The notes below the pieces were generated by a model. The model was not told where the DNA came from and searched no databases. It saw only the letters and a program-made list of their open reading frames with translations. A DNA stretch of 64,000 bases from Candidatus Galligastranaerophilus intestinavium. Its GTDB lineage: Bacteria > Cyanobacteriota > Vampirovibrionia > Gastranaerophilales > Gastranaerophilaceae. The stretch spans positions 61 through 64,060 of the forward strand of contig DVJQ01000042.1 of assembly GCA_018716625.1 (NCBI GenBank), in the 5' to 3' direction. How positions within the stretch are numbered: position 1 is the stretch's first letter; each line of letters opens with the position of its first letter. Positions 2,918 to 55,333 of the stretch are shown here, piece by piece. Both the position numbers and the translations under genes were made by a program.

Positions 2918-3649
2918 TTATTTATCTAAATCCCAATGAGTAATGATACCAAGCAGTTTTTCACTACTGTGACCGTTTTCAGTTACAAACAGAGCTTCAA
3001 GCCGTTTTTTATCAACAAGCGATTTTTTAAACAAATCTTTTATATAATATTCATCACAAGTCTTGGCAACAAACTTATATTCAATTTCCTTATTCTTATC
3101 AAGACTGCAAAACTCTATTAAATCTGCAATTGTCGCTTTTTGTGGTTCTTCTACAATACCGTCTTTATTCTTGTTAAAATACAGCATTAAGGAATGTGAA
3201 GAAAAAACTCCTATTAATTTCTCGGTATTATCTACAATCGGGGTACAGGTATAATTTTTCTCTAACATTGTTTCTATAACATTAGATATTATTTCTTCCT
3301 GCTTAACTTTATAAATACTGCTTTCTTTAACTGCAATGTTTAAAGCAGTTTTAGGGTGCATTATTCTATCTGCATCCCTAGAGAAATCATCATATAGCTT
3401 TTGCGTAAGAATTACATAATTTCCATTACGAACCTCAGGTTCATGCGTTAATAAGTTTCTCAGATTTCTGTAAAATTCCCAGAGATTACGGTTACGTTTC
3501 AGAACTTTATCATTCAAAATATCGAATTTTCCAAATGTCACTGCATTATTTCGATTTTTAATAAATGTTTCAAACTCGGTGTATTTATCAAGAAAATCTT
3601 GTGTTAATGTCATATCCGCCTTTCTTAATTTTGCCCCATTTTGTACCAT
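2918..3649 (-). CDS. HEPN-like (RNxxxH) N-terminal domain fused to a CBS-pair domain
   Basis: The helical N-terminal ~100 aa end in LWEFYRNLRNLLTHE, with R-N-L-L-T-H encoded at 3443-3460 (an Rx4-6H HEPN-type motif). The C-terminal half has two CBS-like units (...LIGVFSSHSLMLYF... and ...LLGIITHWDL). The start may instead be ATG 3613 (SD GAAAGG), which would put the left inverted repeat in the 5' UTR. Confidence 0.65.
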   Translation of the reverse strand: MVQNGAKLRKADMTLTQDFLDKYTEFETFIKNRNNAVTFGKFDILNDKVLKRNRNLWEFYRNLRNLLTHEPEVRNGNYVILTQKLYDDFSRDADRIMHPKTALNIAVKESSIYKVKQEEIISNVIETMLEKNYTCTPIVDNTEKLIGVFSSHSLMLYFNKNKDGIVEEPQKATIADLIEFCSLDKNKEIEYKFVAKTCDEYYIKDLFKKSLVDKKRLEALFVTENGHSSEKLLGIITHWDLDK

Positions 3650-3652
3650 ATT
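3631..3652. repeat. left arm of an exact 22-bp inverted repeat (TGCCCCATTTTGTACCATATTG)
   Basis: Its reverse complement is identical to 3802-3823. Extended to 3657, it reads TGCCCCA-N13-TGGGGCA, a recombinase-core-like palindrome. Confidence 0.9.
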
Positions 3653-3749
3653 GGGGCAAACTCTGAAAATGACTGATATAAAAGAGTCCTAGCATATAAA
3701 GAACAGAGAAATATTATTAAATTGCAACAAAATGAGGGCTGTTTACGGT

Positions 3750-3778
3750 TTGACAAAAGCCTGTGTTTTGCGTATATT
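3750..3778 (+). promoter_or_regulatory. near-consensus sigma70-type promoter TTGACA-17 nt-TATATT inside the putative invertible segment, currently reading away from the operon
   Basis: TTGACA is at 3750-3755 and TATATT at 3773-3778, with an exact 17-nt spacer. In this orientation it leads into a 12-codon mini-ORF (3806-3844) and then antisense into the recombinase gene. Confidence 0.55.
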
Positions 3779-3801
3779 TGCTATCATAGGGCAAATTGTA
3801 T

Positions 3802-3823
3802 CAATATGGTACAAAATGGGGCA
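3802..3823. repeat. right arm of the exact 22-bp inverted repeat
   Basis: CAATATGGTACAAAATGGGGCA is the reverse complement of 3631-3652. It duplicates the first 5 codons of ORF 2918-3649 in inverted orientation. Confidence 0.9.
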
Positions 3824-3857
3824 CCACATTCTGGGGCAGTTTAGGTATTAAGAACTT

Positions 3858-4403
3858 TTAAAGTTCAAAATTTTTGTAACTGAAATCTATTTCGTCCTGT
3901 TCAACCCCAATATACATGAGAGTTATTCTCTGGCTTGAATGATTAAATATTTTCTGCAATACAATAGGGTCTTTAAATTTCTGATAGTGATGATAACCGA
4001 AAGATTTTCGCATTGTATGAGTTGAAACGTGGGCGGTTATTCCGTTTTCTTTACAGGCTCTGACAATAAACCTATAGACCTGTGACCTGTCTAATCGCTT
4101 ACCTTGCTTGCCGAGAAATAAAGGTTCTTCAAGGTTTTTACCCTTTGTAAAATCTTTCAAAACTCGTTTTAATTTGTCGTTAATGTAAAAACTTTTCAAT
4201 TTCTGGGTCTTTTTCTCAACGATTGTAATATGGGTTTTATTAACAACATCCGAAACATTTAACCCTACAATATCCGAAACTCGTAAACCGGAGTTCATTC
4301 CAAGTACCCATATTACATAATCTCTTTTGTTATGTAATTTCAAGTATTGTTCAATCTTCTCAATATCTTTTCTGTTCTTTATCGGTTCAGCTTTCTTATT
4401 CAT
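3858..4403 (-). CDS. small tyrosine recombinase (catalytic domain only, FimB/FimE-sized), candidate invertase
   Basis: At 181 aa it has GLRVSDIVGL (Arg), HTMRKSFGYH (HxxR) and a C-terminal ITLMYIG (Tyr). SD GGAAGGAA is present. It sits directly beside the inverted-repeat pair. Confidence 0.85.
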   Translation of the reverse strand: MNKKAEPIKNRKDIEKIEQYLKLHNKRDYVIWVLGMNSGLRVSDIVGLNVSDVVNKTHITIVEKKTQKLKSFYINDKLKRVLKDFTKGKNLEEPLFLGKQGKRLDRSQVYRFIVRACKENGITAHVSTHTMRKSFGYHHYQKFKDPIVLQKIFNHSSQRITLMYIGVEQDEIDFSYKNFEL

Positions 4404-4485
4404 CTACATTCCTTCCTGCAACATTAAAATCGTTTCGTTGCAAGATAGAATGTAAGTAAACACAGGTTATATAAGCAAGATAGTA

Positions 4486-4611
4486 TTAATGCGTAAGCAT
4501 TGCACCGATATTTAGAAAAGCAAGCAATAGCAACTCTCCCAAAAATCCGAGAACTGGAATTAAGATTATTGCTAATAGAATGCCAAGTGCTATTTGTATG
4601 ACTTTTCTCAT
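4486..4611 (-). CDS. 41-aa hydrophobic peptide (MRKVIQIALGILLAIILIPVLGFLGELLLLAFLNIGAMLTH), below the ORF-track size cutoff
   Basis: Its ATG overlaps the TGA of the upstream Bro-N/DinD-like gene (ATGA coupling at 4608-4611). The sequence is almost entirely hydrophobic behind an N-terminal RK. Confidence 0.4.
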   Translation of the reverse strand: MRKVIQIALGILLAIILIPVLGFLGELLLLAFLNIGAMLTH

Positions 4612-5462
4612 TGCTTATTCTCTATCTGCCTTGGTTTTCTGCTCTTGGGTAAGAAATTTTCATCAGTAATAACAGGTTTTCCTGTCTGTAATTCAATTTG
4701 TTTTCGTGCTTCTTTAGCTACACTTCCGCCCTGTTTTGCTACAGATTTATTCTCTTCTAACGTTTTCGGGTTCTTTTCTTTAGAAATTTCAGTTGTTGAA
4801 ACTTCCGCTAACATATTTAAAACAAGTTCCATGTTAGACATATTATCTCTTAGGCTTTCCTTCTTTAAACCTTTAAAATCTTTATACTCACGAGTTTTCA
4901 TGCCAGACCATTCCTGTGTTAATATATCAGTAAGAATGCCGTATTGATTATCTGCAACACCACTCCTTTTCCATTCATCAGTTAATGCTTTTCTGATTTC
5001 AATGGATTTTAAGCGTTGATTTACCCATTCCGGAGAATATCCCTTGGTTAAATAATATTGTAATGCTCTGTTAATCGCAATTTCCGGGTCTTGAATTTCA
5101 TCAAGTCTTTCTCTACCGACTTTTGCAAGCCATAACTTAAAAGGTTCAGCCTTCGGACTAGGAATAGACTGAACTAAGCGTAAAACACCTTCTGTATCAA
5201 GAACATCGGTTTTATAATACTTCCCATCAGAAGATTGCATTTTCAGTTGGTTACAAGTTGTAACCAACTGACTACCTTCCTTGCGTAGTCTGTTTTTTAG
5301 CACTTTCCAATAATTATTAGGATTTTTACTATCTGACAATATACCGACAATATCAACAACAGAGAAATACCAAGTTTCTTTCTCTCTATCCCACGATGTC
5401 CTAACTTTATAATCTTCAAACAGTTTAATGGATGTCTTAATGTCTTTTTCAGTCTTTTTCAT
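4608..5462 (-). CDS. Bro-N domain / DinD-like (DNA-damage-inducible protein D family) protein
   Basis: The N-terminal WYFSVVDIVGILSDSKNPNNYWKVLKNRLRKEG...TDVLDTEGVLRLVQSIPSPKAEPFKLWLA resembles Bro-N/DinD. The size (284 aa) is close to E. coli DinD. Confidence 0.65.
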   Translation of the reverse strand: MKKTEKDIKTSIKLFEDYKVRTSWDREKETWYFSVVDIVGILSDSKNPNNYWKVLKNRLRKEGSQLVTTCNQLKMQSSDGKYYKTDVLDTEGVLRLVQSIPSPKAEPFKLWLAKVGRERLDEIQDPEIAINRALQYYLTKGYSPEWVNQRLKSIEIRKALTDEWKRSGVADNQYGILTDILTQEWSGMKTREYKDFKGLKKESLRDNMSNMELVLNMLAEVSTTEISKEKNPKTLEENKSVAKQGGSVAKEARKQIELQTGKPVITDENFLPKSRKPRQIENKQ

Positions 5463-5589
5463 GTCAACTCCTTATCTTTATTCTATCACAAACAGAAATC
5501 CTCAATCTAAGCCCACTAGGAAGCCCTTGAAGCGATTTTATTACCTTGCATGGTATAAAGTTATACCCATTTTTAACGCTTGAGTGCTT

Positions 5590-6672
5590 TTATATAGGAA
5601 CTGCAACGGTTTCAGCGATACCAAGTTTCTGATAGAGTTCAATATACAGAGGGTTTACATCAGAAGAGTGTACTTTTTTAAGCAGGTTAGAAAATGAATC
5701 GCCAAAGCCATTATTTTTAAATATCTTAATTAATGAAGGTGGTAATGGGGCTTCATTTATCAGGTCTGCAAACATTTGTTCATAGTTATTCAGCCTGACA
5801 TCACCTCTTATAACTGGTTCTTGATAAAATATTACTTCTTGCAAGGTATTTATGTAATATTTTTCAAGTGTTTCGTACAATTTTCTCTCTTTAAGTAAAT
5901 CTAACAAGGTTTTCAGCTTCAATCCGTCTTTACCCTTCTTGCCTGTAATAAAGTTAGAAATATTCTGCAATTTCGGTTTATAACGATACTGTAATTCACA
6001 GCGCAAAATATTAACCTTTTCAAGGTAAAGTGTCTTTGTTTCAGTATTGTAAGCCTCAGAAGGTATAAGAGCCTGTTCTTCTTCACTCAATCCAAGCCTT
6101 AATACAACTTCTTTAATATTTGCCTTGTCTTGCAATTCTTGTGCCTTATCGTAAAATAGGTACTGCCTATCTCCTACTTTATCTTTTTCCGTAAAATGTT
6201 TTGCAAGAGTAGTTACATATAAAGTTTTGTTTGTGTCGCTTGAGTGGTACAGTAATGACTTAAATCTCTTCTTATACATTCTATTTGCAAGGAAGTTTAT
6301 ATAATCTATAGGTGAGTTTTCCATAAAATTATTCTTTGTTAAGTGAAGAACAGATACCCTGTACTTATCAATTACATTATCTGGTAAACTATATAAACCC
6401 AAATTTTCAAAAAGTTCGTACAATTCATCTTCTGTAGGCATTTCTAAATTTGTATCGGTATATTTTTCATCATTCTTTAGATATCTGGTAGGAGTAAAGC
6501 ATAGGCTTAGCTTCTGCCTGCTTGTTTTTATAGTGTAAGCATTCTGTGGAAAATTTTTTCCCATACATTTATTCATTTGATTTAATTGAAAATCAACATC
6601 AGCACCTAAATCCTTCAACTCCGGAATAGGCGCATAAAATCCGAGTTTATCAATTAATAAGTTACCATGCAT
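5590..6672 (-). CDS. hypothetical protein (360 aa); a faint resemblance to rolling-circle/phage replication initiators is unverified
   Basis: Long ORF that overlaps the upstream gene by 11 nt. Only weak cues suggest a function (LIDKLGFY near the N-terminus, LRCELQYRYK). Confidence 0.55.
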   Translation of the reverse strand: MHGNLLIDKLGFYAPIPELKDLGADVDFQLNQMNKCMGKNFPQNAYTIKTSRQKLSLCFTPTRYLKNDEKYTDTNLEMPTEDELYELFENLGLYSLPDNVIDKYRVSVLHLTKNNFMENSPIDYINFLANRMYKKRFKSLLYHSSDTNKTLYVTTLAKHFTEKDKVGDRQYLFYDKAQELQDKANIKEVVLRLGLSEEEQALIPSEAYNTETKTLYLEKVNILRCELQYRYKPKLQNISNFITGKKGKDGLKLKTLLDLLKERKLYETLEKYYINTLQEVIFYQEPVIRGDVRLNNYEQMFADLINEAPLPPSLIKIFKNNGFGDSFSNLLKKVHSSDVNPLYIELYQKLGIAETVAVPI

Positions 6673-8587: not shown

Positions 8588-9178
8588 TTTTAACCTCCTT
8601 TTATTATGCACAATATTTAATCTTTTCCAGAGCCATGATATATTTAACTAAATCTTGAACTATTAGTTCTTCTGACGGTTCTTCTTCTAAATCAAGATGT
8701 ACACATACTTTTGCCGTATGCTTACCTTTGCTAATATTAAAGTTCCATACATCTTGATTTCTCAATTGAATACTGCTTTCTATCTACGCTGTAGATACTT
8801 GTATGCACTGTCGTGCAGTTTTCCGAAAAATTGGCACAAAAAAATAACCCCATTTGATAACGCTACATTTCTGTAACCTCTCTTTATAGGTCGATAGCTT
8901 AGTTAGCTACCAACTGGTGATTACCGTGAAAATCGCCATAAGGCTATTTAGTTATGCCGTTCAATGTTTTTTTCACTGAACACAAATCATTATATCATAA
9001 TTTTTTGATTTTGTCAACTCAAAACCCTTGCTATGACTGATTTTGAGGCGAAGATACTATTTTATGCAAATTTTAAAATTTGTCAACCCTTTTCTGCTTG
9101 GAATAATCTTAAGTATCATAAATAGGGCATTTTAAGGCTATTTATGGTATAATTGTAGAAAAGTAAGGAAGGGTTATA

Positions 9179-10705
9179 ATGTTAAATGCAGTCAGTTACG
9201 TAAGAGTATCGTCCGAAGACCAAAAAAAACACGGATATAGTATTGGACAGCAGATAACCAATTGCATGAACTATGCTTTACAAAACAACTATAAGCTGAT
9301 AAAAACATTTAAAGATGAGGGCATATCCGCTAAAGATTTAAACCGTCCTGCTTTACAAGATTTACTAGCGTATTGTATGGATGCAACTAATGAAGTTAAA
9401 GCCGTTATAGTATGGAAATTAGACAGGATTTCAAGGAGTGTAGCGGATTATACTGCAACACTATCCCCATTTTTTGCTCAAAATGATATCCAACTTCTAA
9501 CCGTAGCAGATATTAACGGTGAGGGGCTTGATGTTGAAATGATGAGGCAAATTTCCATGGTATTTGCTGAACGTGAGCGTAAAATGACAGCATTAAGAAC
9601 CAAAGAGGGTATAAGAGGTAAAGTTGCATTAGGACAATACCCTTATCATGCCCCTGTAGGCTATGAAAATATCGAGGTTAAAGGTTCTAAATATAAGAAA
9701 ATGGTAATAGATGAAGAAAACGCATTCTTTGTAAGGCAGGCATATAACCTCTGCTTACAGGGTGACTCCATTGTGACTATTACCAAAAAATTATATAATA
9801 TGGGATTTAGGAATAAACACGGAAACAAGCACCCAAAATCTTCTATTGAATATATATTACACAACATAGCATATACAGGAAAATTCTATTATGATGATAT
9901 TTTAGTCGCAAATACTGATTATGCACCTATAATAAGCGAAGCCACTTACTATGCAGTGCAAGAAAAACTAAATGCACCAGAGAAAACAAGACAAATGCAC
10001 ACTCAATTTCCATATAACGAGTGCATGACCTGCGCTAAGTGTGGTTGTGCAATGACAGGGGAAGTTAAAAAGAAGGTATCAAAGAAAACTAAGAAGGTTA
10101 TAAGAGAATATATCTACTATCATTGTACCGGAAATCGTGGCGGTGACTGCAAAAAGCATAGTTATATCAGGCAGGAACTTATTGAAGAAGCTTTTGTGAA
10201 TATTTTGCAACATATAACAATTCCTGAACACGTACAGGAACTTGTTATTAACGGTCTAAAAAAGGCTCATAAGGAACAGAACCACGATTATGAAATGCAG
10301 AAGAAATCTATTAGAAAGAGAATTGACAAGATAGATAAGGCTCTCAAAAATGTTTTTGAAAACGATTTTGATAAACATGACCAAGGAACATTAAAGAACA
10401 TTAAAAACTGGAAGGCTGAACGTAAAACATTACTCCTTGAAGAACAAGAACTATTAAAAGCAACAGAGACCTTTTTTGTACAATCGAACTGTTTATTGGA
10501 ATTCTGCAAAGACGCTCAGAATGCGTTTTTACAGGGAAATGCCGAACAAAAAAGAAGAATCGTAAAAATAGTATGTTCGAACTTTTCTTACGATGGCGAA
10601 AACCTAGTCATAGAGCCTAAACCAATATTTAAGGCTGTCATTAAAAACAGCCTTTCCAATAAAAAACTCCCCAGGTTGGACTCGAACCAACAACCTACCG
10701 GTTAA
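9179..10705 (+). CDS. large serine recombinase (resolvase domain + recombinase domain + zinc ribbon + coiled coil)
   Basis: The N-terminus YVRVSSEDQ...GYSIGQQ gives the catalytic Ser. It also has DRISRS, a CxxC...CxxxxxC zinc-ribbon region (CMTCAKCGC...YYHCTG...C) and a long C-terminal coiled coil. SD is AAGGAAGGG. The last 13 codons are read from the antisense of tRNA-Asn. Confidence 0.9.
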   Translation: MLNAVSYVRVSSEDQKKHGYSIGQQITNCMNYALQNNYKLIKTFKDEGISAKDLNRPALQDLLAYCMDATNEVKAVIVWKLDRISRSVADYTATLSPFFAQNDIQLLTVADINGEGLDVEMMRQISMVFAERERKMTALRTKEGIRGKVALGQYPYHAPVGYENIEVKGSKYKKMVIDEENAFFVRQAYNLCLQGDSIVTITKKLYNMGFRNKHGNKHPKSSIEYILHNIAYTGKFYYDDILVANTDYAPIISEATYYAVQEKLNAPEKTRQMHTQFPYNECMTCAKCGCAMTGEVKKKVSKKTKKVIREYIYYHCTGNRGGDCKKHSYIRQELIEEAFVNILQHITIPEHVQELVINGLKKAHKEQNHDYEMQKKSIRKRIDKIDKALKNVFENDFDKHDQGTLKNIKNWKAERKTLLLEEQELLKATETFFVQSNCLLEFCKDAQNAFLQGNAEQKRRIVKIVCSNFSYDGENLVIEPKPIFKAVIKNSLSNKKLPRLDSNQQPTG

Positions 10706-10738
10706 CAGCCGGTTGCTCCGCCATTGAGCTACTGAGGA
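10667..10738 (-). tRNA. tRNA-Asn (anticodon GTT), 72 nt, no encoded CCA
   Basis: Minus strand: TCCTCAG TA GCTC AATGGCG GAGC A ACCGG CTGTTAA CCGGT AGGTT GTTGG TTCGAGT CCAAC CTGGGGA G. It folds into a full cloverleaf with a T-loop TTCGAGT. Confidence 0.9.
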
Positions 10739-53743: not shown

Positions 53744-55333
53744 TATTACGCCTCTGTGTTTAAATATACGATAATAAGCTCTGATTGTTGTTGTAATTTT
53801 CTTTCTTCGCGGCATTTTAAAGAAAAATATTAACGGAATGGCGAGTATGCACATCAGCGCAAGGAGTAAAAATACATCATAAAACGCACAAAGTTTTGCT
53901 TGAGAGAGCATTTGTTTATAAAAATAACCGTTTGCCTTTTTAGCTGCTATATAAGGCGCAAAATAAGTCATAAATTTTGTTTTCATAACCATTAATTTAT
54001 AGTGAAAATTCAAATTTGTGGTACTCAAGTATGCAACCAAATAATTTTGGTGAATTTGCGAAACGCGCGTTACAAAAGTAGAAACTGCAGAGGTTGATAT
54101 AGCTGTCACTATGTTTTTAAAAAGAGCGTGTAATCCCGCAGCATCTGCAAGTTTTGTTTTTGACAAAGTCATAAAAGCAAGTGCACTTATAGGTACAAAA
54201 GTTGTTGCAATACCTATGCCCAATATAACGTTTGGCAAAATTATGCTCTCTAATGATGAGGTATTATTTAGCCTTGAAAACATAAATACGGCTGTTGCCA
54301 TAATCACCAGTCCAATTGCTGAGAGCAATCTGTTCTCAACTTTATCTGCAACTTTACCCATAACTAAAAGTCCTATAAAACATGATATTGCACGTGGAAA
54401 AACTGCAACACCTGCAAAAAACGGGGGGTATCCAAGAATATTTTGTACAAATTGAGGTATTAAAAGCAAGGTACCATACAACATGATGTTAATAAATGAA
54501 CTTATTGCAGTTCCAACAAGAAAATTTCTGTCTTTAAATACTCTGACATCAACTATAGGTTTTTTTGTTTCAAGTTCCCAAATATAGAAAAACACAAATG
54601 ATACTATTGCCATAAGAGTGAGCCAATATATCCAGTATGTATCGAACCAATTAAACTGTTCACCTTTATCAAGGACAATTTGCATACAACCCATACCAAG
54701 AATTATTGCAAATAAACCAACATAATCCATTTGCGACTTGGGCTTCTCTTGGGGCTTATCATCACTTATAAACAATTTTATAAGTGCAAGACTCAAAAGG
54801 CAAAGAGGTATATTCATAATAAACACCCATTGCCAAGAGTAGTTATCGGTTAAATATCCTCCGACAAAAGGTCCAAAAAGAGGGGAAAACATAGCGGCAA
54901 AACCAAAAAAGCCCATTGCAACGCCTTTTTTCTCCGGAGGAAAGGTTTCAAGCAGCACTGCCTGTGCTAAGGGCAAAAGCGCACCGCCTGCAGCACCTTG
55001 GAATATACGGCACAATATCAACATGTGCAAATCCTTGCAAAGCAAGCAAAGAATGCAGCCTATACAAAAAAGACTAACGCTCCAATATGCTACACTCTTT
55101 TTTCCGCAAGCATTTACCCACCAACCAAATATAGGCAGCATTATACCGCCTGAGATAATGTATGCGGTAATAATACTGTTTGCTTCATAAGGTGTAGCAC
55201 CAAAATAACCTGCAATGTGCGGTTGACAAACATTGGTTGCAGATGATGCCACCATTGACATAAATGCAGGGAGAAGTATTGTTATTGCAACAATATACGG
55301 GTTTACTTTTTTCTCTGTTGCTTGCTTGGGCAT
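53741..55333 (-). CDS. MFS transporter, DHA2 (EmrB/QacA, 14-TMS) family
   Basis: At 530 aa it has about 14 hydrophobic segments and a motif-A-like region. Confidence 0.8.
   Translation of the reverse strand: MPKQATEKKVNPYIVAITILLPAFMSMVASSATNVCQPHIAGYFGATPYEANSIITAYIISGGIMLPIFGWWVNACGKKSVAYWSVSLFCIGCILCLLCKDLHMLILCRIFQGAAGGALLPLAQAVLLETFPPEKKGVAMGFFGFAAMFSPLFGPFVGGYLTDNYSWQWVFIMNIPLCLLSLALIKLFISDDKPQEKPKSQMDYVGLFAIILGMGCMQIVLDKGEQFNWFDTYWIYWLTLMAIVSFVFFYIWELETKKPIVDVRVFKDRNFLVGTAISSFINIMLYGTLLLIPQFVQNILGYPPFFAGVAVFPRAISCFIGLLVMGKVADKVENRLLSAIGLVIMATAVFMFSRLNNTSSLESIILPNVILGIGIATTFVPISALAFMTLSKTKLADAAGLHALFKNIVTAISTSAVSTFVTRVSQIHQNYLVAYLSTTNLNFHYKLMVMKTKFMTYFAPYIAAKKANGYFYKQMLSQAKLCAFYDVFLLLALMCILAIPLIFFFKMPRRKKITTTIRAYYRIFKHRGVI

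Follow-up and report, generated by a model that had tools for sequence, protein, structure and literature searches.

The locus described here lies near the left end of a 64,000-nucleotide (nt) window, the whole stretch of DNA that was analysed, taken from contig DVJQ01000042.1 of assembly GCA_018716625.1 (forward strand, positions 61 to 64,060). The host is a gut Melainabacterium of the order Gastranaerophilales, and the recombinase and the CBS protein encoded at the locus are identical to proteins of Candidatus Galligastranaerophilus intestinavium. Between positions 3630 and 3825 a short intergenic element separates a leftward-reading operon, whose first gene encodes the CBS protein, from the gene of a small tyrosine recombinase. 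An earlier reading made from the letters of the DNA alone (the sequence-only reading) had proposed that this element is an invertible promoter that turns the operon ON or OFF and that faces away from it in the window. We examined the element and its neighbours in the window and in related contigs, and found the promoter-bearing segment in both orientations.

A repeat finder placed two inverted arms of 22 nt at 3632-3653 and 3802-3823, 100% complementary and with 148 nt between them. The sequence-only reading had recognised this exact 22-bp pair; its left arm was off by one base, and the interior that it gave as 149 bp measures 148. The pair is the longest exact inverted repeat with arms at most 500 nt apart in the 64-kb window, where the runner-up has 16 nt. 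Because 100 Markov-1 randomisations never produced an inverted repeat longer than 16 nt, the 22-nt repeat is far beyond chance. The left arm is contained in a larger cargo-proximal recombination site at 3630-3660 (site B), of the form TTTGCCCCA-N13-TGGGGCAAA. Its inner form, TGCCCCA-N13-TGGGGCA at 3632-3658, is the extension of the left repeat that had been noticed before, and site B as a whole reads as two inverted 12-nt arms around a putative 7-nt core, TGTACCA (3642-3648). The outer half and the core of this site are conserved across recombinase families. The right arm belongs to the recombinase-proximal site at 3795-3825 (site A; core TGGTACA at 3807-3813), in which a perfect outer arm is paired with a degenerate inner one (ATTGTATCAATA). 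Whichever way the segment is turned, one of the two sites is a full palindrome and the other is degenerate in one half. The 12-nt core TGTACCATATTG occurs in the window at the two repeat arms and, with one mismatch, at 55083-55094. A search for further recombination sites in the window found none beyond the two arms, and related loci, scanned over about 6 kb downstream, showed no other site with this core. In two related loci with the orientation of the window (L005 and L009, at about 6591-6610), the inner arm of site A is GGGGCAAT in place of GATACAAT. It matches the inner arm of the other site for four extra bases while the remaining interior is unchanged, which looks like a gene-conversion or repair footprint between the sites.

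The 148-nt segment between the arms (3654-3801) contains a promoter sequence on the + strand, TTGACA (3750-3755), a spacer of 17 nt and TATATT (3773-3778), that agrees with the consensus at 11 of 12 positions. As the sequence-only reading had it, the promoter points to the right, with the operon behind it and the recombinase gene ahead of it in antisense. Ten sites in the window, counted on both strands, score as well as this one, and the chance of finding such a site in a given 148-nt segment is about 0.02. In a family of loci with an 88%-identical recombinase (P0014) and in an 86% relative (L054), both recombination sites are kept and the interior of the segment, spacer included, has drifted. 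The core is unchanged in the 88% family and differs in L054 (TTGTTTCA). TTGACA-17/18-TATATT is nonetheless retained in these loci at the same place and in the same orientation amid the drifted bases, which argues that the promoter is under selection. Sequence reading by eye also picked out, in the 88% family, a second and weak promoter-like element that faces the cargo when the segment is in the orientation of the window.

The operon reads leftwards on the - strand. Its first gene (2918-3613) encodes a CBS-pair protein of 231 amino acids (aa). The longest open reading frame (ORF) reaches 3649 and the true start is at 3613, for homologues of 223-234 aa begin with MTLTQ, which corresponds to 3613 here, behind the ribosome-binding site (RBS) AAGAAAGG. 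In the window this RBS (3619-3626, - strand) lies just outside site B. The short ORF at 3806-3844 in which the sequence-only reading saw a decoy copy of the first five codons does exist (MVQNGAPHSGAV, then a stop), but the CBS gene does not begin at the ATG within the repeat, and what looked like 'decoy codons' is the repeat itself. With other cargoes the same ATG runs into a stop after 8-13 codons. Since the CBS homologues begin at MTLTQ and the repeat ATG soon meets a stop in front of other cargoes, both repeats are non-coding and lie in the 5' untranslated region (UTR). The claim that flipping leaves the coding sequence unchanged agrees with this placement. A 271-aa ORF is created in the ON state only, and a search of protein databases found no extended forms corresponding to it.

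The CBS protein consists of an N-terminal helical domain and a C-terminal CBS pair. In the N-terminal domain E15 and R52-N53-x3-H57 are invariant among 20 homologues, and the latter fits the Rx4H motif of HEPN type. The N-terminal domain had no Pfam match even at E = 10, and Foldseek with the full AlphaFold model of the protein returned CBS pairs only and no HEPN fold. A single-sequence model of the domain alone reached a pLDDT of 52 and was unusable. Of the HEPN/CBS label that the gene had been given, the CBS half thus stands; HEPN, for which the invariant RNxxxH motif speaks and with which no profile or fold match agrees, stays a lead.

The second gene (2333-2908) encodes a protein of about 189 aa of no known family, which always follows the CBS gene, also in two-gene loci that are locked in the ON state (see below). 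After it come a 70-aa DUF2997 protein (2137-2349), an NrdG-like radical-SAM activase (1569-2234; Fer4_12 / Radical_SAM) and an AAA+ ATPase of the CDC48/FtsH class with weak similarity to IetA (3-1565), all on the - strand. The ATPase gene runs off the window; in related loci its product has 565 aa and is followed by TPR proteins. PADLOC did not recognise the operon as a known defence system and gave weak domain matches of IetA/pVip type alone. In L040-L047 the DUF2997, radical-SAM, AAA+ and TPR genes follow a switch whose recombinase is 88% identical, and the CBS pair is missing there. The module that they form (3-2349 of the window, and L040-L047) is a candidate new defence system.

On the other side of the element, a gene on the - strand (3858-4403) encodes a 181-aa tyrosine recombinase consisting of a catalytic domain only (PF00589, E 1e-24, residues 12-167). 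This is the architecture of FimB and FimE, a likeness that the sequence-only reading had drawn correctly. The catalytic residues R41, K68, H129, R132, H155 and Y164 are all present in an alignment to the XerA and XerH structures, and the protein looks catalytically competent. It is collinear with E. coli FimB and FimE at 25-27% identity and shares with them a single catalytic domain of about 200 aa without an N-terminal core-binding domain. The FimB/FimE invertase models NF007370 and NF007371 gave 43.6 and 45.3 bits, far below the curated cut-offs of 221 and 222, and by score the protein was rejected as a member of that family. It was likewise rejected as a Xer resolvase (XerC/D/A/H/S): the best score was 96 bits against a cut-off of 220 (XerA), the matches cover just the C-terminal, catalytic halves of Xer proteins, and the protein has a single domain rather than two. 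Assignment as an integron IntI also failed, integrase models giving 40 bits against 265 and 19 against 435, and no further sites were found near the cargo. Directly upstream of the recombinase start codon, at 4405-4454, there is an 18-nt inverted repeat with 83% complementarity (TACATTCCTTCCTGCAAC / GTTGCAAGATAGAATGTA). It overlaps the recombinase RBS and could control translation of the recombinase.

We collected related loci in two ways. Contigs carrying the recombinase or alleles at least 99% identical to it were retrieved by exact-protein look-up, and the others came from a scan of public collections for the invariant promoter core; the scan of IMG/VR for that core gave no match. The orientation of the window, OFF, was found in 26 loci of the same island, which amount to 25 distinct contigs (L002 is the same as L020), and in 8/8 loci of the 88%-identical sister family. 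The opposite orientation, ON, was found in L021, a 79-kb contig from a Gastranaerophilales metagenome-assembled genome (MAG), in which the flanks stand in the same order and the 148-nt segment is inverted. The interior of L021 agrees with that of the window at 144/148 positions as reverse complement and at 79/148 on the same strand, while the left flank agrees at 389/400. Each inner arm now lies on the opposite side, which is just what a crossover in the core would produce. The OFF junctions read GGTGCCCCATTTTGTACCATATTGATACAAT and AGTTTGCCCCAATATGGTACAAAATGGGGCAAAATTAAG, and the ON junctions GGTGCCCCATTTTGTACCATATTGGGGCAAACTC and AATTGTATCAATATGGTACAAAATGGGGCAAAATTAAG. In L021 the promoter faces the operon, with 63 nt from the -10 box to the ATG of the CBS gene. 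In the recombinase gene of this contig an A-run near codon 90 carries a +1 frameshift, with loss of H129, R132, H155 and Y164. L021 is the only ON contig with the full operon; its frameshift, at about 5510-5525 (equivalent to about 4127-4140 of the window), may be either an error in the MAG consensus or a 'lock-ON' mutation that arose naturally.

Eight further contigs from eight samples (L065-L072) were found through the 231-aa, rather than 243-aa, members of the CBS protein cluster, and all eight are ON. In seven of them (L065-L071) a tblastn search found just a 16-residue remnant of the recombinase; the eighth, L072, is too short to cover that position. One base is lost from the core of the cargo-side site in these contigs (TGGTA-AA). 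Their cargo is the CBS gene and its 182-185-aa partner only, in another chromosomal context, beside a TPP-enzyme gene. The eight are a single lineage locked ON. Since this lineage carries the CBS gene and its partner alone, the CBS pair is separable from the rest of the operon, as a module of two genes.

Inversion of the segment is a natural event, in which both orientations occur and the breakpoints fall at the repeats. The proposal of an invertible promoter facing away from the operon is borne out by the precise inversion of the same 148-nt segment in L021 and L065-L072, and by the occurrence of both orientations in a 77%-identical family described below. The recombinase is broken in 9/9 ON contigs and intact in 34/34 OFF contigs (33 distinct; 8 from the 88% family). 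The window was therefore captured in the OFF orientation, as had been proposed, but not as a chance snapshot, since every one of the 34 contigs with an intact recombinase is OFF and ON was met only with a broken one. Ends of four contigs of the window's own family (L009, L010, L049 and L050) were considered as evidence of heterogeneity and rejected; they lie off the repeat boundary, and variation in single-nucleotide polymorphisms (SNPs) or cargo fits them better.

Signs of mixed orientation were found in the 77%-identical family (P0076, P0081 and P0092). Its switch is homologous, with shorter repeats, the same TGGTACAAA core (TGGTACA) and a palindromic cargo-side site, and both orientations are common in it. 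For a single recombinase allele, P0092, three contigs have one orientation and four the other. Furthermore, three Logan contigs of this family, together with two similar places, end at ...TGGTACAAAT, the last base common to both orientations, and the 100-kb ENA contig L029 ends at the end of the repeat, ...TGGTACAAA. Stops at ...TGGTACAAAT are what a mixed population would yield in a de Bruijn graph. Nothing comparable was seen in the window's own family. A more distant recombinase in IMG/VR (56% identical) has 25-nt repeats 145 nt apart directly downstream of its gene, and the architecture is thus kept down to this level of identity.

The cargo behind the switch varies. Besides the operon of the window (CBS protein, 189-aa partner, DUF2997 protein, radical-SAM activase and AAA+ ATPase) we found an EcoRI-like methylase with GmrSD/HNH, a Type ISP restriction enzyme and, in the 88% family, a 158-aa protein followed by DUF2997, radical-SAM activase and AAA+ ATPase genes. 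A fifth variant, behind an identical recombinase, switch and RBS, encodes VWA and PP2C proteins, an unknown protein of 391 aa, a Ser/Thr kinase, TonB_2 and HNH (L002, L007, L011-L017, L020 and L022); there the operon lies about 250 nt after the recombinase stop codon. The VWA-PP2C-kinase-HNH operon resembles a TerY-phosphorylation-triad-like system. In loci with different cargo, identity ends right after the RBS AAGAAAGG and the sequences diverge immediately. Recombinase, switch and RBS would on this evidence be a portable module, placed before at least five different defence-like cargoes.

Taken together, we consider it likely that 3630-3825 is a site-specific DNA inversion switch of the fimS/inverton type, through which the adjacent recombinase exerts an OFF-biased control of the operon. 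Two inverted sites that share a 7-nt core (TGTACCA/TGGTACA) and have arms of GCCCCA type bracket a 148-nt segment carrying one predicted strong promoter of sigma-70 type. The 181-aa recombinase is the probable agent of inversion; it would flip the segment by binding to the arms and exchanging strands in the core. In the OFF state the promoter, if active as its sequence predicts, would direct transcription away from the operon and, in antisense, into the recombinase gene. In the ON state it would drive the leftward genes for the CBS protein, 189-aa partner, DUF2997 protein, radical-SAM activase, AAA+ ATPase and TPR proteins, with no change to their coding sequence. The OFF bias may come from the unequal inner arms, from interference of the OFF-state promoter with expression of the recombinase, or from both, and a population would be mostly OFF unless the recombinase is lost. 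RNA reading through the OFF switch would fold into a 22-bp stem, to which we give no weight.

Several observations weigh against this reading. The nine ON contigs amount to two independent events only, and among contigs with an intact recombinase in the window's family and the 88% family, 0/34 are ON, a count of assemblies and not of reads. The promoter is known only as a match to the consensus. Many sister loci have two or three mismatches in the outer arm of site A in addition to its degenerate inner arm, and some of these switch copies may no longer be able to invert. Read-through from the co-directional genes upstream might also express the operon, so that 'OFF' may mean low rather than zero expression; in a simple scan, neither the switch nor its vicinity showed an intrinsic terminator that would block it.

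One rival reading is that the switch is a fossil, which inverted during evolution and is now effectively static in this genome, the operon being expressed by read-through or from some other promoter and the repeats and promoter being a remnant or serving another role, for example antisense regulation of the recombinase. The uniform orientation of the 34 contigs with intact recombinase (families 1 and 1b) is what such a fossil would give, and so is the degenerate site A of many loci; the upstream genes are co-directional and have strong - strand promoters at 9017 and 9086, and the weak element seen by eye in the 88% family faces the cargo in the OFF state. However, both 22-nt arms of the window are perfect, the recombinase ORF and its catalytic residues are intact, and a promoter that never faced a gene would hardly be expected to keep its hexamers amid drifting bases. 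The 77% family, moreover, shows signs of heterogeneity within samples, and assemblies give the majority orientation only, from which a minority ON fraction would escape. We regard a fossil switch as unlikely.

The variety of cargoes raises another possibility, namely that the palindromic site B is an attachment site for swapping whole cargo operons in an integron-like manner and that inversion is a side reaction. An identical recombinase and switch do precede two unrelated operons (that beginning with the CBS gene and the VWA-PP2C-kinase-HNH operon), sister families add more cargoes, the common sequence stops just past the RBS, and several contigs end at the cargo junction (L009 and six similar places). 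Yet this junction lies about 13 nt outside site B and not in its core, searches of the window and of the 6 kb downstream in the related loci found no second site with this core, the matches to integron integrase models are far below cut-off, and a conserved promoter between two inverted sites would be left unexplained. Exchange of cargo at site B is accordingly improbable in our view. A chance repeat, or an artefact in which assembly created the apparent inverted copies, is practically excluded. MAG and metagenome assemblies can misjoin at repeats, but the repeat is far beyond what chance produces and, being shorter than typical assembly k-mers, cannot alone cause a flip; the inverted state was seen in nine contigs from nine samples and several assemblers, each with its own SNPs.

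Beyond the inversion switch itself, we tentatively put forward a stronger form of the idea, which we think possible but hold with much less conviction: that recombinase, switch and RBS form a self-limiting 'phase-variation cassette', plugged in by Gastranaerophilales islands before interchangeable anti-phage operons and stably ON only through death of the recombinase. The OFF promoter would transcribe antisense through the recombinase gene and so hold the switch OFF. The ON state would be transient, as the de-repressed recombinase, aided by the asymmetric inner arms, flips the segment back. If stable expression can be had only by killing the recombinase, every ON contig would be expected to carry a dead one. 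Should this be true, the cassette would be a marker for undiscovered defence systems, for example the DUF2997 / NrdG-like radical-SAM / AAA+ / TPR operon and the CBS two-gene pair.

The surroundings of the locus look like an integrated island. A 508-aa large serine recombinase with Resolvase, Recombinase and Zn_ribbon_recom domains is encoded at 9179-10738, and its end is contained in a tRNA-Asn gene (10667-10738, - strand), so that its final residues are encoded by the tRNA-Asn sequence. Because the large serine recombinase ends within the tRNA gene, the left 10.7 kb or so of the window (from at least position 1) looks like an island integrated into tRNA-Asn. L003-L005 and L009 encode the same 508-aa protein at the corresponding position. 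On its far side, too, the island varies: about 5 kb upstream of the switch recombinase, L001 and L010 (1-1286) have an OLD-like TOPRIM/AAA_15 gene and L002 (142-1299) an SLFN_AlbA_2 gene, which replace the large serine recombinase of L003-L005. A Bro-N domain protein (4608-5462 of the window) has a very strong match (E 1e-131) to PDC-S13, a candidate family of PADLOC, and also matches phrog_15286; its gene is kept directly upstream of the recombinase in all family-1 loci that have an intact recombinase and enough retrieved upstream DNA. At the right end of the island, near-perfect promoters of sigma-70 type lie at 9017 and 9086 on the - strand (12/12 and 11/12 consensus positions). They point leftwards into the row of co-directional genes that ends at the recombinase and switch, and may give rise to read-through transcription.

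Gut Melainabacteria are largely uncultured, and the locus provides a sequence-defined switch in which the recombinase, the sites (core TGTACCA) and the promoter are identified. Since the same module precedes Type ISP, methylase/GmrSD, VWA-PP2C-kinase-HNH, CBS-pair and DUF2997/radical-SAM/AAA+ cargoes, these findings suggest that costly defence functions in this lineage are under bet-hedging control. The module gives a guilt-by-association handle on new defence systems, and the strict pairing of the ON state with loss of the recombinase is a natural experiment on the directionality of tyrosine invertases.

The type of switch is well known from fimS and the invertons; three features stand out here, namely that the module is portable, that its cargoes are of defence type and that the ON state goes with a dead recombinase. 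As in E. coli fimS, a short invertible segment flanked by inverted repeats carries the promoter of the adjacent operon, recombinase genes adjoin the switch, and the recombinase, like FimB and FimE, is a catalytic domain of about 200 aa. The proposed OFF bias, and the idea of a feedback from orientation to the recombinase, recall the behaviour of FimE. In contrast to fimS, with its 9-bp repeats, 314-bp segment and two recombinases, the present switch has 22-nt repeats, a 148-nt segment and one recombinase, and its cargo, instead of fimbriae, is a defence-like operon carried by a Melainabacteria integrative island. The invertible promoters of gut bacteria that Jiang and co-workers reportedly found with PhaseFinder (in Science, 2019; cited in PMC7672463) make expression phase-variable. 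They resemble ours in the promoter flanked by inverted repeats and, often, in a neighbouring recombinase, and the signature expected of them is the occurrence of both orientations in sequence data. Most characterised invertons are from Bacteroidales and control capsule or surface genes. Unlike these, recombinase, switch and RBS appear here to be reused as a portable module before at least five defence-type cargoes. A literature search found no description of an invertible promoter in Melainabacteria/Gastranaerophilales.

Phase-variable restriction-modification systems described as 'epigenetic invertons' are hsdS shufflons, and a survey of them lists one Melainabacteria hsdS inverton, located in coding sequence (PMC7672463). 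Such shufflons resemble the present locus in having a tyrosine recombinase beside a defence locus and in producing heterogeneity of defence within a population by DNA inversion. They differ in that coding sequence is inverted and target-recognition domains are shuffled, whereas here the promoter alone would flip, between repeats in the 5' UTR. Clostridioides difficile, a gut bacterium of low GC content, offers a further parallel in the RecV switches of cwpV, flgB and cmrRST, where a tyrosine recombinase likewise inverts short regulatory segments that are flanked by inverted repeats and lie upstream of operons. There RecV serves several unlinked switches in trans, whereas each switch of the type described here has its own adjacent recombinase.

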